Shown piece by piece: positions 2,798 through 14,754 of a stretch of 31,707 nucleotides of DNA. The position numbers and the translations under genes are program-made. The stretch lies in UHGV virus genome UHGV-0209292; one strand, given 5' to 3'. The notes under the pieces are model-generated. The model searched no databases and was not told the origin of the DNA. It was given only the letters and a program-made list of their open reading frames with translations. Position 1 is the stretch's first letter. Every line of letters begins with the position of its first letter. The stretch is from a virus.

Positions 2798-2810
2798 CCC
2801 CCGCCTAAAT

Positions 2811-2826
2811 GCCGCCTCCGGGCGGC
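2811..2826 (+). terminator. GC-rich hairpin GCCGCC-TCCG-GGCGGC just after the Q stop; no U-tract
   Basis: Perfect 6-bp stem with a 4-nt loop 14 nt after the Q stop. No following T-run, so at best a weak or factor-dependent terminator, or an RNA-stability element. Confidence 0.3.
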
Positions 2827-2963
2827 ATCCTCTCAGAGCGAGCCAGACGCCGCACACGCGGCGCAACCACGCCAGCACCTCGTTAACCGACCGCACATAA
2901 CAGCGCGCCACCACGACGCGCACAGACGCGTAAAATAAATCCTGTCACCACATCTGGCGCGCA

Positions 2964-2982
2964 GTGCTATCCCCGCCTCGCC
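2964..2982. other. cos: cos cohesive-end site (P2/186 type)
   Basis: The + strand reads GTGCTATCCCCGCCTCGCC, whose reverse complement is GGCGAGGCGGGGATAGCAC. That is an 18/19 match to the P2 19-nt cohesive end GGCGAGGCGGGGAAAGCAC as I remember it. It lies directly downstream of Q, as in P2. Confidence 0.7.
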
Positions 2983-3114
2983 TGCCCGCTTGATGGGTCG
3001 GTTTTAATGCAATTGCACCAAGATGATGAATTGGTATCAGCCCTGGCTTTAGATACAGTCTACATACCTTTCAGACACATGCATATTCATGCACCCAGTA
3101 GATGCACGTCTAAA

Positions 3115-3930
3115 TTATTTGTTAAGACCTCGTAATTTCCCCATAAGTCCCTTCGACTTCTGCTCTTTATCCTCTTCTGATTTAAAAACAGAGTAGGTAT
3201 CAAAATCGAAAAAGGAAATGTTCTCAATCTCTGCCTTTGGTATTAGAACCCTAAAATCAGATAGTTCAAGATCAGATTTCCCGTTCAAAATCCCTGATTT
3301 TTCATAGTGTTCATTGTATTTTGTTGTGATGGTTATGGTCAGTTTATCCTTGTCACGATAACCACTCAGAAGGGGAAGCAGCTCAAGGTAGTCAAATGTC
3401 CCATGCTCAAAAGCCGGGCAAAAAACGAAACCGACATAAAATTTGCGTGATTTCAAAGTGGCAATAATTGGCATTTGAGTCGCGGATGCTTCCATAAGCA
3501 TATTCTCAAGCGCGTTATCTCCTACTGCTTTCACTAACGCATCAATCCTTCGATTAGCGTTTTTTAGCCAAAGCTTTTTTAATCCTCCAACAGTGTATGC
3601 CATCGCTAATGACATCAAACCACATAAGGCGAATTTTAGATCTCTGAAACGAGTGGCATCTTCTGCACTAAGTGGGAAAACTCGGCTGATGACATTACTG
3701 TCTGCACCAAAGAATTCGATTGCTCCGTTGACACCCCACCTTAAAAACCCAGTAATGCTTAGGAAAGAGCAAATCGCCCAGGATAAGGTGACGAAAAAGG
3801 TTCCCCATGCCGCAACTAAAAAATAAGCGTCCCAGCCCGTGGAACGCTTAAATTGATATCGGTCTGATAGAGACCTGATCACGTAGACATAACCACTGAT
3901 CAGGATAACCACTAAAAGCAAAGTATTCAT
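3115..3930 (-). CDS. Hypothetical membrane protein, 271 aa (accessory cargo): 2-3 N-terminal TM helices plus a soluble domain of about 150 aa
   Basis: Long ORF in strongly AT-rich DNA (about 37% GC by eye, against a 55-60% backbone). Hydrophobic stretches LLLVVILISGYVYVI, YFLVAAWGTFFVTLSWAICSFLSITGFL and LKFALCGLMSLAMAYTVGGL. Its start ATG overlaps the stop of the upstream 72-aa ORF (ATGA at 3927-3930). Confidence 0.7.
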   Translation of the reverse strand: MNTLLLVVILISGYVYVIRSLSDRYQFKRSTGWDAYFLVAAWGTFFVTLSWAICSFLSITGFLRWGVNGAIEFFGADSNVISRVFPLSAEDATRFRDLKFALCGLMSLAMAYTVGGLKKLWLKNANRRIDALVKAVGDNALENMLMEASATQMPIIATLKSRKFYVGFVFCPAFEHGTFDYLELLPLLSGYRDKDKLTITITTKYNEHYEKSGILNGKSDLELSDFRVLIPKAEIENISFFDFDTYSVFKSEEDKEQKSKGLMGKLRGLNK

Positions 3931-4145
3931 TTAGCTGAGGTCTTGGTTACCAGAAGTGCAATACTTTCAAGCTTATCCAGTTGCTTGACAATCTCTGCCT
4001 GTACATCTTCATTATCAAGGTTCATATTGATAAACCCATCATTGTTGATGTTAAAGCGATTTTTGTTTTTCTTCAGCACCCTGGACAGCCGATCCTGTGG
4101 ACTGCGTGCCGCCAGACTCTGCTTAAGCGCTAATGAAATGGACAT
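3927..4145 (-). CDS. Hypothetical 72-aa protein, first gene of the two-gene AT-rich cassette
   Basis: Very strong RBS GGAAGGAGGAAATT immediately 5' of the ATG on the - strand. A 4-nt ATGA overlap with the downstream 271-aa gene implies translational coupling. Charged and hydrophilic, no TM segment. Confidence 0.6.
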   Translation of the reverse strand: MSISLALKQSLAARSPQDRLSRVLKKNKNRFNINNDGFINMNLDNEDVQAEIVKQLDKLESIALLVTKTSAK

Positions 4146-4412
4146 AATTTCCTCCTTCCATCAAGATGGCGCAGAAGTATACGCATGTGTAGATGTTCCT
4201 TCAACTTATACTTCTATGACACATTTATCGGCAGTTTGTTGCCTTTTTTTAATTTAAATTAAGCTGAGTCGGCGATTTTGTGCAAGTCCCAAAGCTGAGA
4301 TCTGCTCGCTCTGTAACGCTCTCATGCACGCCTCAACCAAAGGAATACTCCTTAGATAAGAGTATCGAAACCAAGCCATTTTAGAAGGTTAATGTTACCA
4401 AAACGAGATATT

Positions 4413-4443
4413 GCCGAACCGAAAAACCAGTTTTCGGTTCGGC
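4413..4443 (-). terminator. Perfect 13-bp hairpin (GCCGAACCGAAAA / TTTTCGGTTCGGC) 10 nt downstream of the tum stop
   Basis: Inverted repeat seen directly. On the - strand it is followed by AATATCTCGTTTTGG, a weak U-tract. It could also insulate the downstream cassette. Confidence 0.45.
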
Positions 4444-4455
4444 AAAGCTCACTAA

Positions 4456-4896
4456 CTAATGCCAGCTCTCGTCTTCCCACACTTCCTTGATGATTCCGTC
4501 CAAACGTTCACGGTCTGATTCGCTCGGGAAGCCTTTTATCTCAACGCCAGTCATTGAGCCTTTTTTGACCGTAATTCGTGAGGAAGGAAATGTGCGTTTA
4601 ACTCTGCGATTAAGCTCACTTTCGAAGGCCTCAACCAGCTGTTGTCCCATGTTTTGTGCTTTATCCAACGTGATGTGTATTCTCACTTCATTTTCTCTTT
4701 TTAATCGTTGTTTACATGGTCTGGCGGAGACAACCACAGAATAAGAATCACGTTTCAGCAAGTTTTCATGCGCTAGCTCAGCTATTAAATTCAATGCAAT
4801 TTCACGATCCCTTTCCTGACATACACCCTCAGTTGTCAGACGGGCTATCAGCTCGACTCTTTCAAGCATGACATGCTCGCTCAGTTCTCTATCCAC
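4456..4896 (-). CDS. tum: Tum-like SOS-inducible antirepressor; C-terminal half is a DinI-fold domain
   Basis: 146 aa, the length I recall for 186 Tum. Residues about 70-146 (VRIHITLDKAQNMGQQLVEAFESELNRRVKRTFP...ERLDGIIKEVWEDESWH) align convincingly with E. coli DinI (MRIEVTIAK...LAGELSRRIQYAFPD...QRISEILQETWESADDWF). GTG start with a strong SD (AAGGGGAGG, 5-nt spacer). A LexA box lies in its promoter. The gene sits between A and the cos-proximal cargo, as tum does in 186. Confidence 0.75.
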   Translation of the reverse strand: MDRELSEHVMLERVELIARLTTEGVCQERDREIALNLIAELAHENLLKRDSYSVVVSARPCKQRLKRENEVRIHITLDKAQNMGQQLVEAFESELNRRVKRTFPSSRITVKKGSMTGVEIKGFPSESDRERLDGIIKEVWEDESWH

Positions 4897-4915
4897 ACAA
4901 CCTCCCCTTACGAGA

Positions 4916-4959
4916 TACTGTATAAATAAACAGTATAATGAAGTGATAAAAAATGTGAA
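4916..4959 (-). promoter_or_regulatory. LexA (SOS) operator TACTGTATAAATAAACAGTA overlapping a sigma70-like promoter for tum (-35 TTCACA, 16 nt, -10 TATACT)
   Basis: A perfect CTGT-N8-ACAG palindrome with the flanking TA at 4916-4935. On the - strand TTCACA (complement of 4954-4959) and TATACT (complement of 4932-4937) are spaced 16 nt apart. The box covers the -10 and the start region. Confidence 0.75.
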
Positions 4960-5018
4960 GAAAAAAATCTGATAGTCTAAATCCGTATGTACATGAAATG
5001 GATGTGATTTAGTTACGG

Positions 5019-7289
5019 TTACAACTTACTTCCAGCCGCTAACCTTGCCACGCGGCTAAGAATTTTTTTGGCTCGCTCCTGATTAGATGGCGCAGCCCTA
5101 AAAACTTCACCACTAGATGACCCTCTGCACCATTTACCACCAAATCGACTTTTTCCTCCCGCCATAAGATGCAGAGCCTCGCCCCGACTGATAGTTATGC
5201 CGGTGCTAATCTGGATTTCTTCTATTGTCCTGGCAACCGCGCCCCCCTGCTCGTCAGTTCCATGGACAAATCCACGTCTGGCGACCGGTTTTTTCACCCT
5301 GAGTCGGTTTGTTAATGACCGCTTTTCACTTCGGCTTAACGGTTTTGATAAATCCGGTTCAGGGGGATCGCTTTCGCTCCCCGTACAGTTATTGACAGAA
5401 CTCCGAGAGGGCGCAGGAGCGCCCTTAACGTCAACGGCCAAATCAACGGCACGCTTCGGCACAATTTTCCACTGCGTTAGCCGGGTTAAAATCGGGGTAC
5501 CAGCACCGACAGCGGAATCGTAAACGCCACGGATGCAGACGGTTTTCTCGCCATACTGATTAAAGTCGGCGCGCGGTTCATACAGCGTGCGCACCTGCAA
5601 ATCATCGCGACGGACAAACGGTCCACCCTGCATATTAACGTAACCAGCCCAGTCACCGGCGTCAGCGGCATCATGAACGGCGGCAAATTCAACGCTCAGA
5701 CCGTGCGCGGTCTCGGTATCGGCGAGACGACGCAATTCACGGTAGACCGTCACCGGCGCACCGCCGATAAACTGAAACTGACGGATGTGCCAGCGCGCCG
5801 CCCATGCTGATACAGCGGGGGCTGTCTCTTTCAGCAGCTCACCGCTTTCGTCATCGGTTTCACCATCAAGAGCATAGCCGTCGATATTTTTTGAAATGTA
5901 TTTAGCAACATAGCCGGTAGCGCTGCCTTTTTCCGGGTCAATGGCCTCGGCATGGAAGCGCGCTTTTTTGGCTTTATCGCTTCTCAGTTCGTTGCGGTCT
6001 TCCTCCCACGCATAATCACGAATGATGAGGCGCACGCGCTCGACGTCTTCCGGCAACATGAACATAAGCATGTGCCAGTGCGGCGTCCCGTCGTGATGAG
6101 GCTCGGCAACACGTATGCCAAAAATGCGGATTTCTTCCCGGTGCAGCTTGGCGCGAATGCGCGCCCAAAGGCCGGTGAGATAGCTCTGCGTGTCCGACGG
6201 GCTGGCACCGTTCCATTTGCTGTTACGGTATCCCGCTTTAGTCGTGGCGTGATATTTAGACGGTGCAGTCAGGGTGTAAAACTCCCCGACGTATCCGAGC
6301 TCATTGCAGATATTTTCAAACCCACGGATGCGGGTCATCAGCTCGCAGCGACGTATCGCTGGGTTGGCGACCGAGCCATCATATTTGTCAATCAGGCTGA
6401 TGCGGTTGCCGTCTTCGTCTTCGAGATCCAGCCCCTTGAGAAATTCGCGCGTGCGGCGCTTCTGCTCGCGCCAGTCAGTCACGCAGTTTTTACTCGCGTA
6501 GGCGTGTCGTTTCTTGCTGACGTTGCCGACTGCAATTTGCAGGTGTTCGCGCCATGCTGCCGCAGTGCGTCGCAAGCGACCACGCCACCAAACCTCATTA
6601 AACATGCGTGTTATAGCAGGGGCGATTTCATCCTCACTGGCATATTTCTTTGTCACCCGCTCCCAATGCGGCGGGGTAACGTTGAATTGCAGGGAAATGA
6701 AACCGGCTCGCATGTACCAGGTGTACAGCGTTTTGAGCTCGCTAAATCCGGTGTCATCAATGTCGGCCAGTTCAGCACGAATAAAATTTGCTATATCAGC
6801 GGCCAAAAGGTCGATATCGGCGCGCGACATATCAGGGAGACTGTTATATCTGGCAACCATATTGACCATGCGTGACGCCAAATACTGCATAAGCTCGGTA
6901 TCAAAATGACCGCCAAAAACAGCAGCTGATACGTTGCTTTTGATACCTGCACACTCGTATTTTTTTGCGACCAGCTCAAGACGTGGCAATGCCTTTTTGC
7001 AGAAGCTGATTAAAAAGGCATTGGCTCGTTGACTGCCCTGATTTTGCTCCAGCACCGCAGCGGTGCGATAAACGTCAAAGCGCACGCACTCGGGCTGGAG
7101 AGAAAGCACTTTTCTCGCATGCAGCAAAGCCGCGAACATACGATCGCGGCGTTGTTGTTGGTCATAAGTCAGGTATGGGCTTGCTATTGCCTGTTTTGGA
7201 AAATTCCATACAAAGGCATAATCAATCTCACCCGTAGCCTTTGCTGAGACAGGAGTGTCTATGACTTTATTCACTGAAGAAGATCCCAC
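5019..7289 (-). CDS. A: Replication initiator protein A (rolling-circle HUH endonuclease, P2 gpA-like)
   Basis: 756 aa (P2 A about 761). HUH motif EPHHDGTPHWHMLMF and the catalytic Tyr pair in GYVAKYISKNIDGYALDG, as in P2 A and phiX174 A. Apparent GTG start at 7289. Confidence 0.9.
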   Translation of the reverse strand: MGSSSVNKVIDTPVSAKATGEIDYAFVWNFPKQAIASPYLTYDQQQRRDRMFAALLHARKVLSLQPECVRFDVYRTAAVLEQNQGSQRANAFLISFCKKALPRLELVAKKYECAGIKSNVSAAVFGGHFDTELMQYLASRMVNMVARYNSLPDMSRADIDLLAADIANFIRAELADIDDTGFSELKTLYTWYMRAGFISLQFNVTPPHWERVTKKYASEDEIAPAITRMFNEVWWRGRLRRTAAAWREHLQIAVGNVSKKRHAYASKNCVTDWREQKRRTREFLKGLDLEDEDGNRISLIDKYDGSVANPAIRRCELMTRIRGFENICNELGYVGEFYTLTAPSKYHATTKAGYRNSKWNGASPSDTQSYLTGLWARIRAKLHREEIRIFGIRVAEPHHDGTPHWHMLMFMLPEDVERVRLIIRDYAWEEDRNELRSDKAKKARFHAEAIDPEKGSATGYVAKYISKNIDGYALDGETDDESGELLKETAPAVSAWAARWHIRQFQFIGGAPVTVYRELRRLADTETAHGLSVEFAAVHDAADAGDWAGYVNMQGGPFVRRDDLQVRTLYEPRADFNQYGEKTVCIRGVYDSAVGAGTPILTRLTQWKIVPKRAVDLAVDVKGAPAPSRSSVNNCTGSESDPPEPDLSKPLSRSEKRSLTNRLRVKKPVARRGFVHGTDEQGGAVARTIEEIQISTGITISRGEALHLMAGGKSRFGGKWCRGSSSGEVFRAAPSNQERAKKILSRVARLAAGSKL

Positions 7290-7854
7290 CCAAAGCCGCT
7301 ATGTTGATTTGATTACAGAGGTGACGGCTTTCGAAGCTACGAAAGAACCAATGAAGATCATTTCCGCATCCGACATGCTCGGCATTTGCGATGCTTTTCT
7401 TGCTGACACTCAATGCCACATAGCAGACCGGCTACCTCTTTCAATAGCTGGTCGGCGTGAGCTAGGTCGGAAAATTGAGTGGAATTGTCCACATAGCTGG
7501 AAACCACGCGAAGAATGGTCAACACATGTTCGGCACGCCTTACAAATTTTAAATCGACGTTATTTGGATACCCCAGTATCTCCACAGGATGACTGGCAGA
7601 CCTGGGAAGAACTATCGACAGATATTCATGTGTCGGCTCGCTGTGTTCGGCAGACTGTTGAGTTTTATCGCTCTGGAAATCCCCAGCATTTACCGATGTC
7701 GACTGAGCTTTTTGCTGTTCCCGAAGTTTTTTCAAAATTTGTAGCTTCGATTCTTTCGGGTGACATTCATCCTGTTTGGATGTGGCATGCTGACGCAGCC
7801 AAAACGCCGAAATGCTTTGATGGGCTTTATCCCAAATACACGCCGCTTTCTTAA
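7261..7854 (+). CDS. Alternative hypothetical 197-aa protein on the opposite strand of the same low-GC insert (candidate 2 of 2)
   Basis: Strong SD (AGGAG, 5-nt spacer) before the ATG at 7261. Globular-looking composition (W/C/H-containing, mixed hydrophobic and charged). It would overlap the first 29 nt of A and converge on the early operon. Only one of the two ORFs is likely to be real. Confidence 0.3.
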   Translation: MTLFTEEDPTQSRYVDLITEVTAFEATKEPMKIISASDMLGICDAFLADTQCHIADRLPLSIAGRRELGRKIEWNCPHSWKPREEWSTHVRHALQILNRRYLDTPVSPQDDWQTWEELSTDIHVSARCVRQTVEFYRSGNPQHLPMSTELFAVPEVFSKFVASILSGDIHPVWMWHADAAKTPKCFDGLYPKYTPLS

Positions 7855-7879
7855 GCTGGCTTAGTGGCCGGGTAGTCAT
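7358..7879 (-). CDS. Hypothetical 173-aa protein in the low-GC insert between the TraR-like gene and A (candidate 1 of 2 mutually exclusive ORFs)
   Basis: Co-oriented with the early operon. Its ATG overlaps the stop of the TraR-like gene (ATGA at 7876-7879) and is preceded by GGGGGG. The sequence is Q/S/K-rich with three rare Arg codons (CGA, CGG, CGG) at the 3' end, so it could be the antisense shadow of the + strand ORF. Confidence 0.4.
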   Translation of the reverse strand: MTTRPLSQLKKAACIWDKAHQSISAFWLRQHATSKQDECHPKESKLQILKKLREQQKAQSTSVNAGDFQSDKTQQSAEHSEPTHEYLSIVLPRSASHPVEILGYPNNVDLKFVRRAEHVLTILRVVSSYVDNSTQFSDLAHADQLLKEVAGLLCGIECQQEKHRKCRACRMRK

Positions 7880-8100
7880 ATCGCCCCCCGATAGTGTTTT
7901 AATTTAAGTTCGACAATTTGCTGGCAGGTTACGCAAGAGGCCACACCCGGAATCGCAATGCGGCGAGCTTCCGGGATTGGTGCGTCACATTCTTCGCAGA
8001 GAAAACGGGAAGGTGCAGCGATACGGCTACGCGCGTTGCTGATGTGGCGCTCGCGGTCTTCCTGCTCGCGCAGTTGTGCTAAATCCATTGCGTCGGCCAT
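7876..8100 (-). CDS. TraR/DksA-family C4 zinc-finger protein (P2 orf82-like)
   Basis: 74 aa with CEEC-x17-CVTC (two Cys pairs 17 residues apart), the typical phage TraR-like layout. It sits within the early operon upstream of A, as in P2 and 186. Confidence 0.75.
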   Translation of the reverse strand: MADAMDLAQLREQEDRERHISNARSRIAAPSRFLCEECDAPIPEARRIAIPGVASCVTCQQIVELKLKHYRGAI

Positions 8101-8327
8101 TAGTGCAGCTCCTGTGATTCATTCTCAAAGCGAGTGGCTTCACGGCGCAGCAGTTCGGCGGCTTCGATACCGCTCATCCCCTCTTTGGTGATATGTATCG
8201 CCAGTGCCTCAAGGCGGATGGAAACAGCGAGCGCGCGGTCTTTACGTTCTTCTTTTTTGGCATCGGTCAGCAATACGGTCAGCGCATCGCTATCTGTATT
8301 AAAACTACGGGTTACGATATTACGCAT
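8100..8327 (-). CDS. Hypothetical early protein, 75 aa
   Basis: Strong RBS (AGGAGAATAAT before the ATG). Its stop overlaps the start of the TraR-like gene. Conserved small early orf position of P2/186. Confidence 0.6.
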   Translation of the reverse strand: MRNIVTRSFNTDSDALTVLLTDAKKEERKDRALAVSIRLEALAIHITKEGMSGIEAAELLRREATRFENESQELH

Positions 8328-8394
8328 AATTTATTCTCCTGATTTCGGGCAATAAGAAGCCCGGCGGGTTTACGCCATTAAATTTCTGTTTGGA

Positions 8395-8733
8395 TTAATT
8401 CGGCATGGTTAGCCGTTTGGGAAATAAACTCACCACTGCACGAAAATGATTCATCGCTGTAATAAGCGCCTTTTTCTCGTCAGTAGTCAGCTCACTTAAT
8501 TCGAGCTCATGACGAGCCGCAGGGATTTTTGCCAGAAAGAAAATAGCGGCCAGCGCCCGATTATTTTCTTCAAATTGTGGGTCACGTTTATCGCGCATAT
8601 CATCGACAAAACGTTCAACCTCTTTCCAGCTATCGCCCCAATATCTCGCGCGCAATTCAGCCACATGATTGAGACCGGTCAGACGTTCACCCGCTTTTAG
8701 CGGAACAGTCGCGGAAACAGCTTCGATAGCCAT
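8395..8733 (-). CDS. Hypothetical early protein, 112 aa (186 dhr-position)
   Basis: ORF in the early operon between the cII-proximal small orf and the 75-aa orf. The function call is positional only. Confidence 0.5.
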   Translation of the reverse strand: MAIEAVSATVPLKAGERLTGLNHVAELRARYWGDSWKEVERFVDDMRDKRDPQFEENNRALAAIFFLAKIPAARHELELSELTTDEKKALITAMNHFRAVVSLFPKRLTMPN

Positions 8734-9841: not shown

Positions 9842-10417
9842 TTGATACTCGATACTCAGGTGAATAACGACGAGTTACTGGATAGAATTTGTCAAGTATA
9901 TGGTTTTACTCAAAAAATCCAGCTAGCCCGGCACTTCAATATTGCCGCCAGCTCCCTACAAAACCGCTACACACGAGGCACTGTTTCTTATGATTTCGCC
10001 GTGCAGTGCGCACTAGAAACTGGAGCAAGCCTACTATGGCTTCTTACGGGGGAAGGCTCTCAATATGATGGCAAACCGTCCCCAAAGGATCCGAAAATGA
10101 TAGATACCTTCACTCTGAGTGATGGAAAGCTCGAAGAAAATTCACCATTGAGTATTGATGCCGGTTTTTTTAGCAAGCAAATGTCAAAAGGTATTGCTGT
10201 TCGCGCCGATGGAAAGCTGCACTTCATAGAACAAGATGCCTCACTTTCTGATGGCCTTTGGTTGGTTGATATTGAGGGAGCTACCAGCATCAGAGAATTG
10301 ACGCTCCTACCTGGCAAAAAGTTACACGTTGCGGGCGGCAAAGTACCATTTGAGTGCGGGATAGATGAGATAAAAACGATTGGCCGTGTAGTGGGTGTAT
10401 ACAGCGAGGTTAATTGA
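9842..10417 (+). CDS. cI: CI immunity repressor (186 CI type, about 190 aa)
   Basis: 191-aa ORF in the correct position and orientation, co-transcribed with int. Size matches 186 CI (192 aa) and is far longer than P2 C (99 aa). N-terminal helix-rich and C-terminal beta-rich organisation. The start (TTG at 9842 with AAGGA upstream, or GTG at 9860) is uncertain. Confidence 0.75.
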   Translation: MILDTQVNNDELLDRICQVYGFTQKIQLARHFNIAASSLQNRYTRGTVSYDFAVQCALETGASLLWLLTGEGSQYDGKPSPKDPKMIDTFTLSDGKLEENSPLSIDAGFFSKQMSKGIAVRADGKLHFIEQDASLSDGLWLVDIEGATSIRELTLLPGKKLHVAGGKVPFECGIDEIKTIGRVVGVYSEVN

Positions 10418-11418
10418 TGACTGTCCGTAAAAATCCGGCTGGAGGTTGGATTTGTGAGCTCTACCCAAACGGAGCAAAAGGCAAACGTATCAGAAAAAAA
10501 TTCGCTACTAAGGGCGAGGCTCTGGCGTTTGAGCAGTACACCGTTCAAAACCCGTGGCAGGAAGAAAAGGAAGACAGACGGACTCTAAAAGACCTAATCG
10601 ACTCATGGTATAGCGCTCACGGTATTACCCTTAAAGACGGTCTCAAACGCCAGTTAGCGATGCATCATGCTTTTGAGTGTATGGGCGAACCGCTTGCACG
10701 CGATTTCGATGCGCAGATGTTTTCCCGCTACCGTGAAAAGAGGCTAAAGGGTGAATATGCCCGTTCAAACAGGGTTAAAGAAGTATCGCCCCGCACGCTT
10801 AATCTTGAGTTAGCCTATTTTCGCGCGGTATTCAATGAGCTAAACCGCCTCGGTGAATGGAAAGGCGAAAACCCGCTAAAAAATATGCGCCCTTTCCGCA
10901 CAGAAGAAATGGAAATGGCCTGGCTAACTCACGACCAAATTTCACAACTGCTCGGAGAGTGCAAACGGCATGACCACCCTGATTTAGAAAGTGTGGTCAG
11001 AATCTGCCTAGCAACTGGTGCACGGTGGTCTGAAGCCGAGAGCATGAAAAAAAGCCAGCTAGCGAAATACAAAATCACATACACTAACACGAAAGGCAGA
11101 AAAAACCGCACCGTTCCAATCAGTAAAGAGCTCTATGAGTTTCTGCCTTATGAAAAAAAGGGTCGGTTATTTAGTGATTGTTATGGCGCGTTCCGATCTG
11201 CTCTGGAAAGAACAGGCATCGAACTACCGGCAGGACAACTTACCCACGTTTTGCGCCACACCTTCGCCAGCCACTTTATGATGAATGGCGGTAACATTCT
11301 GGTCTTGCAGCGCGTGCTCGGCCATACCGACATCAAAATGACGATGCGGTATGCGCATTTTGCTCCAGACCACTTAGAAGACGCTGTTAAACTTAATCCA
11401 TTAAATACATTTAGTTAA
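10417..11418 (+). CDS. int: Tyrosine integrase (P2/186 family)
   Basis: 333 aa. The ATG overlaps the cI stop (TGATGA). C-terminal catalytic region HVLRHTFASHFMMNGGNILVLQRVLGHTDIKMTMRYAHF carries the R..HxxR..Y signature. Confidence 0.9.
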   Translation: MTVRKNPAGGWICELYPNGAKGKRIRKKFATKGEALAFEQYTVQNPWQEEKEDRRTLKDLIDSWYSAHGITLKDGLKRQLAMHHAFECMGEPLARDFDAQMFSRYREKRLKGEYARSNRVKEVSPRTLNLELAYFRAVFNELNRLGEWKGENPLKNMRPFRTEEMEMAWLTHDQISQLLGECKRHDHPDLESVVRICLATGARWSEAESMKKSQLAKYKITYTNTKGRKNRTVPISKELYEFLPYEKKGRLFSDCYGAFRSALERTGIELPAGQLTHVLRHTFASHFMMNGGNILVLQRVLGHTDIKMTMRYAHFAPDHLEDAVKLNPLNTFS

Positions 11419-11427
11419 TCTAATTTA

Positions 11428-12891
11428 TTATTTATTGTTCATTTCTCGTAAATCTTGCTCCCAATGGGTATCGTTGGACTCAACAATACCCTCTCTTTCC
11501 AAGAGCATCATTCTCTTCAAAAGATATTTTTGGCTCATACCTCTTAGGTAATACCTAACAGTTTCGGCAAAATCCCAATTATCATCTGAAAACAGTCTTG
11601 GCTGGAATGAATGGCAATATACAATTTCAATATCCTTACCCTCGCAATCAAAATTAGCTAACATATTAGTAATTTTCTCATCACGAAGCACTTCTACATG
11701 TGGGCCATGTAATGTTTCATATCCAATATGAATAACTGTTTTACCATCATCTGGCGCTTGCCTCACAGCTTTTACAAGCAATCCCTTAACATCTTTAGCT
11801 TTTTTTGCAATCGACTCATCTGCTATACATTCCCATTTAGCGCAGAAAGGTCTCTTTATTTCGTCTGCAAAAACGTTAATTGTACTATATTCATCATCGC
11901 TATAAGTACAAAGTTTAGCTTGGCAGGCCATTGTATAACTACCATGGGGTTCATAGTTATCATCTAAAAGAGAGTTAAGCTGTGGCGAAGGATATTTTAC
12001 TATCCATTTAGCGAAATGTTTATTTACTCGATCCATATCAATTAAATTTGCCACCACTGATATTTCATTATTTTCACATGATGCAATGCCGCATTGCATT
12101 AAATCTCGCGATGCGTATAAACACCTAACAACATTCAAAAAAATATCAGGATGGGTACTATTGACCTCACATTTGAACTTTACATTGAAAAAAACAGGAT
12201 ATGGATAAGAAATCATGTAAGGTAGAGCTTGCTGCCATCTTTTAACCCATTCCGTTCGTTCATTTTCTGAATATTGAGTTACCTTTGCAAGCCTTTTACA
12301 TTCGACATATAGTTTATCATTTTCTTTCTTCACAAGAAGGTCTGGAGTTTTACCTGCACCGGACTCAGGTAAAAACTCTACTTCCCAGCCATTTTTTATA
12401 TAACAGGCAGCAACAACCAATTCAAATAATACCGAGTCTGGTTGATTCTCAGGTTTAACAAGTAAATCTTTAAGCTTATTTTCAATACCTTTGGTACACT
12501 TCAACTCTTCGCTAAATTCCCCGATTGTAGCAAAAAACGGCCAAATTCTAGAGGATTGCGCAGGTTCATCAACTGTTGGGCGATCTGCAAGTGATTCTGC
12601 AAGGTATAAATACCAAGCGATCCAATCTTCATAAAAAGCCATGCGAGAATCTTTTTCATGAAAAGAAACATCAGTTTGGCTGTTATATAACCGTTCAGTG
12701 AGAGAGCGAAAATATCTTAGAACATTATCTCTTCGCTCAAACCACTTTTCTTGCCCCATGACTTCAACAAACCATCGATATGTTTTCTTTACGTCTTTGA
12801 CGAGAGGGTCGTCGTGTCTCGCATTAAAATGCTTCCAAAATTCAGCATACTCATCTTCAGTAGCATTTTTATCATGGCTATTTTCGCTCAC
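11428..12891 (-). CDS. Hypothetical 487-aa protein with a PD-(D/E)xK nuclease motif; AT-rich cargo between int and attP
   Basis: About 33-35% GC by eye. Motif FELVVAACYIKNGWEVEF...GKTPDLLVKKENDKLYVECKRLAK gives E ... PD ... ExK in canonical spacing. GTG start with an AAGGA SD. Convergent with int, with a 9-nt gap. Confidence 0.7.
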   Translation of the reverse strand: MSENSHDKNATEDEYAEFWKHFNARHDDPLVKDVKKTYRWFVEVMGQEKWFERRDNVLRYFRSLTERLYNSQTDVSFHEKDSRMAFYEDWIAWYLYLAESLADRPTVDEPAQSSRIWPFFATIGEFSEELKCTKGIENKLKDLLVKPENQPDSVLFELVVAACYIKNGWEVEFLPESGAGKTPDLLVKKENDKLYVECKRLAKVTQYSENERTEWVKRWQQALPYMISYPYPVFFNVKFKCEVNSTHPDIFLNVVRCLYASRDLMQCGIASCENNEISVVANLIDMDRVNKHFAKWIVKYPSPQLNSLLDDNYEPHGSYTMACQAKLCTYSDDEYSTINVFADEIKRPFCAKWECIADESIAKKAKDVKGLLVKAVRQAPDDGKTVIHIGYETLHGPHVEVLRDEKITNMLANFDCEGKDIEIVYCHSFQPRLFSDDNWDFAETVRYYLRGMSQKYLLKRMMLLEREGIVESNDTHWEQDLREMNNK

Positions 12892-12982
12892 TTGATATCC
12901 TTAGATGGAAGAAAAGATATGTTTAAGTTACTATTTTTTTACCCCTATGTATGCTACTGCATTCACAAACATAGAGCATTTT

Positions 12983-13011
12983 AGTGGCGATAAAGTGGCG
13001 ATAGAAATGGC
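12983..13011 (+). repeat. attP left arm: direct repeats AGTGGCGATA x2 plus a partial third (integrase arm-type sites)
   Basis: AGTGGCGATAAAGTGGCGATAGAAATGGC seen directly. The same motif recurs on the other side of the core. Confidence 0.5.
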
Positions 13012-13098
13012 AAATTACAGGTAATCATTGGCAGACAGATGCAAACTAAGTCAATGACAAATAACGCAAACCATTGATTTTCGGTTGTTCTTGTAGGA

Positions 13099-13144
13099 AC
13101 TCATAATCGCTTGGTCGCTGGTTCAAGTCCAGCAGGGGCCACCA
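13099..13144 (+). other. attP: attP core: 46-nt 3' portion of tRNA-Ile2 (ileX/ileY, LAU anticodon type), anticodon loop to CCA
   Basis: ACTCATAATCGCTTGGTCGCTGGTTCAAGTCCAGCAGGGGCCACCA matches the 3' end of the enterobacterial ileX/ileY tRNA from the anticodon loop onward. There is no 5' half, so it is not a functional tRNA gene. It is flanked by int on one side and ogr on the other, both phage genes. Confidence 0.8.
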
Positions 13145-13171
13145 AATTTTATCATTAAAATCATACAGTTA

Positions 13172-13198
13172 AGCCACTCATTCGAGTGGCTTTTTTTT
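13172..13198 (+). terminator. Rho-independent terminator (AAGCCACTC-ATTC-GAGTGGCTT followed by T8) downstream of the tRNA fragment
   Basis: 9-bp stem with a 4-nt loop followed by an 8-T run. After integration it would terminate the reconstituted tRNA transcript. Confidence 0.6.
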
Positions 13199-13211
13199 GC
13201 ATGGATTTTTA

Positions 13212-13234
13212 AGTGGCGATAAAATGGCGGTAGA
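13212..13234 (+). repeat. attP right arm: AGTGGCGATAAAATGGCGGTAGA (arm-type repeats matching the left arm)
   Basis: Same AGTGGCGATA / TGGCG-TAGA motif as at 12983-13011, in direct orientation. Confidence 0.5.
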
Positions 13235-13300: not shown

Positions 13301-13519
13301 TCACAGCCATAATGGCCGCTGACCACCAACGGTCGGGTGAGGTGGAGCTGGGGTTATCGTTCCGGGTGTAACTATAAAACGCTCTACCGACTCCATCGTC
13401 ACAAATGTACAGCTGCAATTTATATTTGTGCATTGATGATAGCGCTCCTTAGTATTCTCACTTAAATATCTACTCGTACGAGCATGCGCCGCGTGCTGGC
13501 ATTTCGGACAATGGAACAT
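13301..13519 (-). CDS. ogr: Ogr-type zinc-finger late-gene transcription activator
   Basis: 72 aa from MFHCPKCQHAAHARTSRYLSENTKERYHQCTNINCSCTFVTMESVERFIV... This is near-identical in pattern to P2 Ogr (MFHCPLCQHAAHARTSRY...KERYHQCQNVNCSATF...), including the C-x2-C...C-x4-C zinc finger. Confidence 0.9.
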   Translation of the reverse strand: MFHCPKCQHAAHARTSRYLSENTKERYHQCTNINCSCTFVTMESVERFIVTPGTITPAPPHPTVGGQRPLWL

Positions 13520-13584
13520 TATCAAGCCCTCATTCACAATAAGTGAATAAATGATACTCAATCCTTCACAATTTGAGAACACTT

Positions 13585-14754
13585 TTATTTGTTCATCTCT
13601 TCTGTAACATACTCCACATCCGACACTTTAACCTCAAGCTCTAAGCCCGTCGTGTAGCCGTTCCCGTTAAGGTTATGCACCACCCGGCTGATTATCCAAG
13701 CCTGCTCGTCTATAACACGCTTAAAGCCTTTGACCGCTATCGGCGTTTCAGGAAATAAATCTGCCCGACCAATAGCCAGCGAGATTGAAAACTCCGCCAC
13801 TCCGCGCTGTAACTTGTCCCACTTAGCCTGAGCGGCGCGCATGGCCTGCGCTTTTGTCGCGTAGATGGTCGTCAGCTCCAGCACGTTCTCAGACTCACCG
13901 ACCATATACTCGCCCTCGCGCGCCTCCTGCTCTTTTTTGGCTCCGGCCTTGGACGTGGTTTTTGTCGCTTTTGGATGTTGCAGCGCGCGCAGGTGCTGCT
14001 CCTTCGGCTTGCGCCTGAGCTTCACCTTTTGCTTTTGCGGCTTCGGGTCTTTTGTGTGCAGCCATTTAGCCGTTACGCCGGTGTAGGCTTCACGGTCAGC
14101 AATCGCAAACTGATGACGGTCGCCGTCGCCGCGCTCGATCGTCATCTGCGGGATGGGCTTGCCGCTGACCGTCCGACCGCTACCGGCTTTCAGGAACAGC
14201 AGTTTCCCCGCTTTCACCGACACTGATGCACCGTTACGGTCAGCCAGGCGGGACAGAAACACCGCGTCGGATTCCTGCGCCTGGTCAATATGAGGCACGG
14301 GGATCGCTTTCAGCGTGTCAGCCACGCTGGCCGTGAGTTTGTTGCGCGCTGCGATGGTCTCAACAATGACACCGAGCGTGGTGTTGTGCCATGACTGTTC
14401 CCGGCGGGAGTTCAGCGTGCCGCGAAAATCAGCGCTGCGCCCTCTGATGGTCAGCGTATCAGGCGCGCCACGGTGCTCGATTTCGTCGACCGTGAAACTG
14501 CCCTTATTCAGCAAGGCTGAGCCCTGCCAGCCCAGCCACAGCGTCAGTTTTGCACCACGCGGCGGCAGCTCGACAAGCCCGTCGGTGTCGTCGAGCTCGA
14601 TGTCGAGCTGGTCAGCCTCGAATCCGCGATTGTCCGTCATGGTCAGACTGATTAGCCGGTCGCTGAAATTCTGCGTGATATCATCGCCATCGAGCGTGAG
14701 CATAAACGCCGGAGCAATCTGTGCCCCGGCCTGAACATTCAGACCCGTAATCAT
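13585..14754 (-). CDS. D: Tail protein gpD (late control gene D)
   Basis: 389 aa, last gene of the tail operon before ogr, with P2 gpD-like size and order. Confidence 0.85.
   Translation of the reverse strand: MITGLNVQAGAQIAPAFMLTLDGDDITQNFSDRLISLTMTDNRGFEADQLDIELDDTDGLVELPPRGAKLTLWLGWQGSALLNKGSFTVDEIEHRGAPDTLTIRGRSADFRGTLNSRREQSWHNTTLGVIVETIAARNKLTASVADTLKAIPVPHIDQAQESDAVFLSRLADRNGASVSVKAGKLLFLKAGSGRTVSGKPIPQMTIERGDGDRHQFAIADREAYTGVTAKWLHTKDPKPQKQKVKLRRKPKEQHLRALQHPKATKTTSKAGAKKEQEAREGEYMVGESENVLELTTIYATKAQAMRAAQAKWDKLQRGVAEFSISLAIGRADLFPETPIAVKGFKRVIDEQAWIISRVVHNLNGNGYTTGLELEVKVSDVEYVTEEMNK

Follow-up and report, generated by a model that had tools for sequence, protein, structure and literature searches.

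The viral genome UHGV-0209292 (31,707 nucleotides, analysed over its whole length and hereafter called the window) belongs to a temperate phage of the 186-like group (Eganvirus-type, P2 family), and the 31.7-kb sequence looks complete. Between its integrase gene and the phage attachment site (attP) lies an open reading frame (ORF) of 487 codons, which we call ORF487. The local gene order is D, B/ogr, attP, ORF487, int and cI, followed by apl and cII on the opposite strand, and the order around ORF487 agrees with the annotated record of phage 186. The gene, its surroundings and the two anchors between which it sits are as follows:

10414..11418, + strand: tyrosine integrase gene int, the left anchor of the slot, with ~90% nucleotide identity to int of phages 186, EtG and GCS667
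11401..12984, no strand: inserted cargo cassette of ~1.58 kb, delimited by blastn breakpoints and by guanine-cytosine (GC) content
11419..11427, no strand: spacer of 9 nt between the int and ORF487 stop codons, too short for a terminator
11428..12891, - strand: ORF487 coding sequence, 487 residues plus stop (1464-nt ORF)
12892..12982, - strand: non-coding upstream part of the cassette, presumed to be the promoter region
12982..13014, + strand: left cluster of arm-type integrase sites, the right anchor of the slot, aligned with the annotated arm-site region of 186

The gene starts with GTG at 12891, preceded by the Shine-Dalgarno sequence AAGGA at 12898-12902 on the - strand, and its stop codon occupies 11428-11430. 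An ORF of 1464 nt in AT-rich DNA, with 171 homologues retrieved by database search (all unnamed and without Pfam domains) and a ratio of nonsynonymous to synonymous substitution rates (dN/dS) of 0.076 against the Salmonella allele, is not a product of chance, and it is under purifying selection. Its protein is identical to WP_160858978.1 from an integrated prophage of Enterobacter hormaechei. As for the integrase, Pfam Int_N and Phage_integrase were matched on a gene identical to that of the window. An original prediction, made from the letters alone, had placed ORF487 convergent with int at a distance of 9 nt, which is exactly the distance between the two stops, and had put its start close to the left arm-type sites of attP. 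Arm-type sites were scored with the 186 consensus, RARTGGCGRTR on the given strand, giving 4 matches across the window against 0.31 expected; the exact match in the left cluster lies at 12993-13003, so that the first cluster starts ~91-100 nt upstream of the start codon. The low GC content was also read correctly, although the proposed value of about 33% was too low: it is 36.7% for ORF487 (28.5% at third codon positions) and 36.3% for 11428-12982, against 47.3% for int and 53.3% for the whole window.

The limits of the insertion were mapped by blastn against five relatives, namely 186, EtG, GCS667, Kp4852-2 and YenM_56.17. Homology to all five ends at 11396-11404 and restarts at 12983-12985. 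These breakpoints show that the interval first singled out as integrase-adjacent cargo (11428-12982), whose coordinates fit them almost exactly, is a discrete cassette, and that the swap site runs from the end of int to the first arm-type site. The cassette contains the last int codons, the 9-nt spacer, ORF487 and the 91-nt upstream region. In EtG and GCS667 the two breakpoints lie ~9 bp apart, and hence the slot is empty in these phages. Phage 186 carries Orf69 in the corresponding int-attP interval. At identical breakpoints, Yersinia phage vB_YenM_56.17 encodes a 483-residue protein (4536-5987 of its locus) without Pfam or NCBIfam match and with only a marginal match to the PADLOC model PDC-M48A, while Klebsiella phage Kp4852-2 encodes a 377-residue YaeF/YiiX-like permuted papain-like protein (4521-5654 of its locus). 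Whether relatives carry different cargo at this site was one of the checks suggested with the original prediction, and the comparison shows that they do.

A more diverged 186-like prophage, that of Escherichia coli BEN5202 (NZ_LR740758.1), displays int, then gapS1, then the gene of WP_000183405.1 (1973-6069). The gapS1 product (508 residues) is matched by NF047931 at 401.6 bits, for a cut-off of 320, and WP_000183405.1 is listed as DS-24 in DefensePredictor Table S6, so that two defence genes stand at the position equivalent to that of ORF487. The int-att interval has been described as a minor P2 defence hotspot that holds 3% of P2 systems, in a study in which only P4 cargo was assayed (PMC13586616). 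ORF487 thus has the attributes of hotspot cargo: it lies between conserved anchors, in a slot of variable content, and a relative carries known defence genes in the equivalent slot. The old, tin and Z/fun genes of P2 and the cargo of P2/P4 hotspots (Rousset et al. 2022, PMC9122126; PMC13586616) follow the same logic: anti-phage genes carried in small loci, variable and poor in GC, that are flanked by conserved phage genes. The defence proteins of the P2 hotspots are themselves unrelated to ORF487; Old, for instance, is an ATPase-Toprim enzyme.

The protein was modelled with AlphaFold2 from an alignment of 78 sequences. The model has high confidence (predicted local distance difference test score of 90.6, predicted template modelling score of 0.91) and forms one compact body, which can be divided as follows:

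12457..12891, - strand: N-terminal all-helical domain, residues 1-145, from DSSP of the model
12172..12456, - strand: PD-(D/E)xK nuclease core, residues 146-240, from the model
12421..12423, - strand: codon of E157, the acidic residue on the first core helix, invariant
12340..12342, - strand: codon of D184, the aspartate of the 'PD' motif, invariant
12295..12303, - strand: codons of E197-C198-K199, the 'ExK' motif (tttacattc on the + strand)
11431..12171, - strand: C-terminal alpha/beta region, residues 241-487, from the model

The original prediction had read a PD-(D/E)xK motif in the segment FELVVAACYIKNGWEVEFLPESGAGKTPDLLVKKENDKLYVECKRLAK, which corresponds to residues 156-203 of ORF487, and the model places the predicted fold around this motif. 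The core consists of a helix (151-166), three strands (170-173, 185-189 and 192-200), a second helix (206-227) and a final strand (233-239), that is, the alpha-beta-beta-beta-alpha-beta topology of the PD-(D/E)xK superfamily as judged from the model. The catalytic layout is also that of the superfamily, with E157 on the first helix, D184 on strand 2 and E197 and K199 on strand 3. These four residues are invariant in 78 close and 46 distant relatives, and, together with E211, among 45 relatives at 21-32% identity; C198, between the two invariant residues of the ExK motif, is conserved in at least 90%. Conserved residues of the N-terminal domain include W50, R53, Y60, F61, W93, Y94 and R115. Meanwhile, the C-terminal region displays a polar cluster that is invariant in the closer set of relatives (K364, Q378, H388, E392, T393, E400, R403, E443 and T444), and by fold this part was matched only to the non-catalytic central domain of acetyl-CoA carboxylase. 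The whole chain is evenly conserved, and there is no hypervariable domain. The regions that flank the nuclease core had been called unrecognised, and so they are in Pfam, NCBIfam, PADLOC, the sequence search of the PDB and the fold search. The C-terminal region had also been described as rich in cysteine, which is an overstatement: the protein has 13 cysteines, 10 of them in the last 280 residues (3.6%), just three (C198, C355 and C426) are conserved in the whole protein, and a metal-binding pattern is absent.

Library searches placed ORF487 in no characterised family. Pfam gave only a sub-threshold match to Hjc (E 0.15), NCBIfam gave none, and the sole match in PHROGs was PHROG 37220, of unknown function. 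A sequence search of the PDB with the family profile returned no meaningful match, and Foldseek searches of the PDB and BFVD returned no whole-protein match, only local matches to the nuclease core. Literature searches by accession gave no match. Two further candidates proved unrelated to ORF487: DS-20 'PDX1' of DefensePredictor, likewise of 487 residues, has an unrelated sequence, and GiPD474 of Gifsy-1 is an ATPase.

The family is large. Among 1.84 billion cluster representatives, the family profile matched 1,051 at E ≤ 1e-3, of which 225 at E ≤ 1e-30, and nearly all are 430-510 residues long and span the full profile. The family thus amounts to ~1,050 clusters (at 50% identity) of constant architecture, from Gammaproteobacteria and Bacteroidota. 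Apparent fusions are miscalled starts or fragments; those at the N terminus of two members (P0220 and P0256) look like the former. One metagenomic member (P0288, 279 residues), probably a pseudogene or the product of a deletion, retains the N- and C-terminal regions but not the nuclease core.

The genomic contexts of the family bear on its possible role. In 186-like prophages of Enterobacter, Salmonella and Cronobacter (65% identity in the last), a member stands in the int-att slot; for the Salmonella copies, the index of the assembly collection lists 404 data blocks. A member also lies between the tail-fibre assembly and sheath genes (the G-FI tail slot) of E. coli phage 899 and Yersinia phage GMG73, which is where P2 carries Z/fun, and another is found in the GpA-GpQ hotspot of a P2-like prophage of Pantoea. 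Lambdoid prophages of E. coli and Proteus carry the gene between the replication and nin/Q regions, and in the Proteus prophage it is on the strand opposite to the lytic genes. The segment with the E. coli homologue occurs in 11 of 5,426 complete E. coli genomes; ORF487 of the window itself has no DNA match in complete E. coli genomes. In Pseudomonas, Aeromonas and Vibrio, the gene is found in other integrative elements, immediately behind the integrase or in its vicinity, and in Marinobacterium, in a single such case, it adjoins hamA-hamB (Hachiman) and a transposase. Its GC content is 5-18 points below that of its flanks in nine contexts. Wherever the context examined had gene annotation, the family gene stands alone, with no methyltransferase, antitoxin or conserved partner next to it; the nearest methyltransferase lies 2.5 kb and five genes off, in Proteus. 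The candidates considered as conserved partners were set aside, because those in Pseudomonas are part of one common element backbone and the one in Aeromonas is unrelated. One family member has already been flagged computationally: WP_194933767.1, a distant relative of ORF487 (BLASTP 2e-31; hhalign 99.9%), is a 'putative novel defense gene' in DefensePredictor Table S4, with a mean log-odds of 13.1.

Some neighbours deserve mention in their own right. The member in phage 899 lies next to a 348-residue DUF3800 protein (7633-8679 of the locus), and the one in the Pantoea prophage next to a DUF4365 protein and a 375-residue protein of unknown function (5198-6825 of the locus). These three may be further defence cargo rather than conserved partners.

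These contexts bear on two explanations other than defence. The sharp boundaries of the cassette might point to a selfish element: a homing endonuclease could be copying itself into the int-attP junction, or an addiction toxin could be stabilising the prophage. PD-(D/E)xK homing endonucleases exist, and I-Ssp6803I is among the fold matches of ORF487. Unrelated cargo stands at the same breakpoints in other phages, however, which indicates that the breakpoints belong to the slot and not to ORF487. The single cognate locus of a free-standing homing endonuclease was not seen either, as members lie in six or more mutually unrelated types of locus, with differing flanks. A toxin-antitoxin module is likewise at odds with the locus, which shows no cognate antitoxin and no conserved neighbour; the cassette's 91 nt upstream of the gene and 9 nt downstream leave no room for an antitoxin. 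Moreover, the gene is intact in hundreds of lysogens. We regard a selfish role as very improbable.

The protein could, alternatively, serve the phage life cycle as a recombination or junction-resolving nuclease, in degrading host DNA, or in anti-restriction or counter-defence. The weak likeness to Hjc-type resolvases (Foldseek probabilities of 0.5-0.8, besides the Pfam match) agrees with this, as does the position of the lambdoid copies near the replication and nin regions, home of recombination genes such as rusA. Yet the Hjc match (PF01870) reaches 12.4 bits for a cut-off of 21.1 and covers residues 165-219 only, and ORF487, with its 487 residues, is four times the size of Hjc (~120-140 residues). 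The gene is also absent from the viable close relatives 186, EtG and GCS667, it lies outside the lytic operons, on the opposite strand in the case of Proteus, and it occurs in conjugative/integrative elements and at the chromosomal site by Hachiman. A life-cycle role is therefore quite unlikely in our view. Taken together, absence from viable relatives, variation in strand and locus and the lack of a partner disfavour recombination, homing and addiction alike.

Defence by a lone PD-(D/E)xK nuclease has precedents. In Shedu (SduA, DUF4263), a single gene encodes a PD-(D/E)xK nuclease with an additional N-terminal domain, a likeness to ORF487. The Shedu nuclease is C-terminal, whereas ORF487 has a further conserved C-terminal region of ~250 residues, and ORF487 matched neither DUF4263 in Pfam nor the Shedu models of PADLOC at E ≤ 1; none of 46 distant members matched them either. 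HamA and nucleases of the NucC/Can2 type differ in that they need a helicase partner or a cyclic-nucleotide signal, while ORF487 is partnerless; no CARF- or SAVED-like domain was detected in it.

GapS1 (GAPS1; NF047931) occurs in Vibrio GMT islands and in Enterobacteriaceae. It has been validated as a PD-(D/E)xK defence made of one protein; the T7 capsid protein triggers it, and dormancy follows (bioRxiv 10.1101/2023.03.28.534373). Like ORF487, it is a lone polypeptide of ~500 residues with a PD-(D/E)xK site, a 15-residue spacing from D to K and no partner gene, and in E. coli it is located in the int-att interval of a 186-like prophage, directly after int. The nuclease site, by contrast, is in the C-terminal half of GapS1 (D313/K328 in Vibrio; ~290-330 of the 508-residue E. 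coli homologue) and in the middle of ORF487 (D184/K199), and GapS1 shares the strand of int, to which ORF487 is convergent. ORF487 does not belong to the GapS1 family: NF047931 gave no match (E ≤ 1 for ORF487, and E ≤ 0.1 when three homologues were included), and the ORF487 family profile aligned to GapS1 with an hhalign probability of 0.5% over ~39 columns of the nuclease strands (BLASTP E 0.1).

Based on these findings, we consider it reasonably probable that ORF487 is a self-contained, single-polypeptide PD-(D/E)xK nuclease, carried as accessory cargo that protects the lysogen from other phages. The original prediction had named a phage-borne anti-phage effector as a candidate, and the genomic context argues in favour of it, through the hotspots, the Hachiman neighbour, GapS1 in the equivalent slot and the DefensePredictor score. 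Apart from the GC value and the cysteine content, all parts of that prediction that computation could check were borne out. We postulate that ORF487 would be transcribed alone, uncoupled from the lytic genes, starting within the ~90 nt that separate its start codon from the attP arm sites, and that its product would be harmless in the uninfected lysogen. A lone nuclease that is intact in hundreds of lysogens must separate self from invader by its own accessory domains, and the tightly packed N-terminal helical and C-terminal alpha/beta domains are the presumable means. Upon superinfection, the metal site formed by E157, D184, E197 and K199 would cut nucleic acid and halt the invader. The substrate would most likely be DNA, and tRNA or another RNA is also possible.

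How discrimination might be achieved leads to a third explanation, which is itself a form of defence. ORF487 could be an orphan modification-dependent (Type IV-like) restriction endonuclease, or one specific for a sequence or structure, constitutively active on incoming DNA, without a trigger or an abortive outcome, its target being a feature absent from host and prophage DNA. The absence of an adjacent methyltransferase in the annotated contexts agrees with this, as a cognate methyltransferase is also lacking in Type IV systems, and so does the single compact body with the nuclease core at its centre, as in many restriction enzymes. Even conservation along the chain suggests an invariant target, and weak Mrr_cat matches were obtained for 3 of the 46 distant members. 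These matches are marginal, however (best E 0.0025), none was obtained for ORF487, no modified-base reader domain (SRA, winged helix or YTH/EVE) was recognised in it by Pfam or by fold search, and its overall architecture is unlike that of Type IV/Mrr-like and MspJI-like enzymes. In addition, GapS1, the only validated occupant of the equivalent slot, is reported to be gated by a trigger. We hold such a constitutive restriction enzyme to be possible, on the unlikely side.

As for the defence nuclease that we propose, we find it slightly more probable that an infection cue gates the enzyme, in the manner of GapS1, than that it cuts modified DNA constitutively. Gating is favoured by the analogy with GapS1 in the slot and by the conserved polar cluster outside the nuclease, while even conservation and a compact build resembling that of restriction enzymes favour recognition of a DNA feature that host and prophage lack. 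A bolder version would make ORF487 an immune sensor and effector in one protein, with the C-terminal polar cluster as a site for ligand sensing or for a second catalytic activity, through which infection would turn the nuclease on. To our knowledge, such control of a PD-(D/E)xK centre has been described for no defence nuclease, and we consider this version rather unlikely.

Several points weigh against the defence reading or against parts of it. No PADLOC 2.0 model, candidate systems included, matched ORF487 or the 46 distant members, and nuclease activity and phage resistance are predicted properties of the family. Among 105 neighbours at 19 species-representative loci were three OLD/GajA/AriA-like ATPases, two UvrD helicases, two Toprim proteins and one AbiTii, a modest enrichment in defence genes that consists of raw counts with no background comparison. 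Even conservation without a hypervariable sensor fits recognition of an invariant feature better than that of fast-evolving phage proteins, which makes the trigger-gated variant uncertain. The best fold matches of the nuclease core include tRNase toxins (CdiA-CT), and hence the substrate could be tRNA. A scan of 12892-12982 found no match to the sigma-70 consensus on the - strand upstream of the gene, so that expression in the lysogen is a supposition. Finally, the + strand has no terminator from the int stop up to the hairpin at 13171-13192 (window 11419-13192); transcripts of cI-int would therefore traverse all of ORF487 in antisense, and transcriptional interference between int and its cargo is possible.

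The ORF487 family is unnamed and has no model in Pfam, NCBIfam or PADLOC 2.0, while the kind to which it would belong, single-protein PD-(D/E)xK defence in prophage hotspots, is already known. We present it as a well-defined, widespread and directly testable candidate defence gene. If the proposal is true, a widespread single-gene anti-phage system of ~1,050 clusters would be added, with a high-confidence model and clear catalytic residues. Members are common in lysogens of clinical relevance (Salmonella, Klebsiella, Enterobacter, Cronobacter, Proteus and E. coli), and hence could shape host range in phage therapy. Furthermore, the integrase-attP swap site at which 186-like phages trade defence cargo is now defined to the base pair, and can be mined for further systems.

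The remaining features around the slot are:

9842-10417, + strand: cI
~13099..13144, + strand: attP core, the 3' part of tRNA-Ile from the anticodon loop to CCA, placed by sequence and homology
13171..13192, + strand: hairpin and T-run terminator beyond ORF487, the counterpart of the predicted terminator of the 186 lysogenic operon
13211..13232, + strand: right pair of arm-type integrase sites (13211-13221 and 13222-13232), by consensus match
13301-13582, - strand: B/ogr
13585-14754, - strand: D

The attP core was placed by homology to the 186 feature 'tRNA-Ile truncated / in common with attB', and ARAGORN found no complete tRNA there. At a lysogen junction (position 7696 of its locus), the match to the phage continues to 13196, terminator hairpin included, which is 52 bp beyond the tRNA-Ile 3' end; the segment of phage-host identity thus seems longer than the 36 bp annotated for 186. 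The window is also 55 bp shorter than 31,762-bp metagenome scaffolds that bear an identical ORF487. A k-mer overlap in a circular assembly could account for the difference, and the genome would then be that of an excised or replicating phage.

At 2800-5018 of the window, in the GpA-GpQ (old/tin-type) hotspot, there is a second cargo island of low GC content (39-43%). It includes a DinI-like (Tum-like) gene (4456-4896, - strand) and a 271-residue ORF (3115-3930, - strand) without Pfam or PADLOC match. The phage homologues of this ORF are annotated only as 'hypothetical' proteins, in SEN4/SEN5 (Salmonella), ST15-OXA48phi14.1 (Klebsiella) and phiES15 (Cronobacter), and two unlisted Pseudomonas phage records also carry 'hypothetical' homologues. 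The 271-residue ORF is a further defence candidate.

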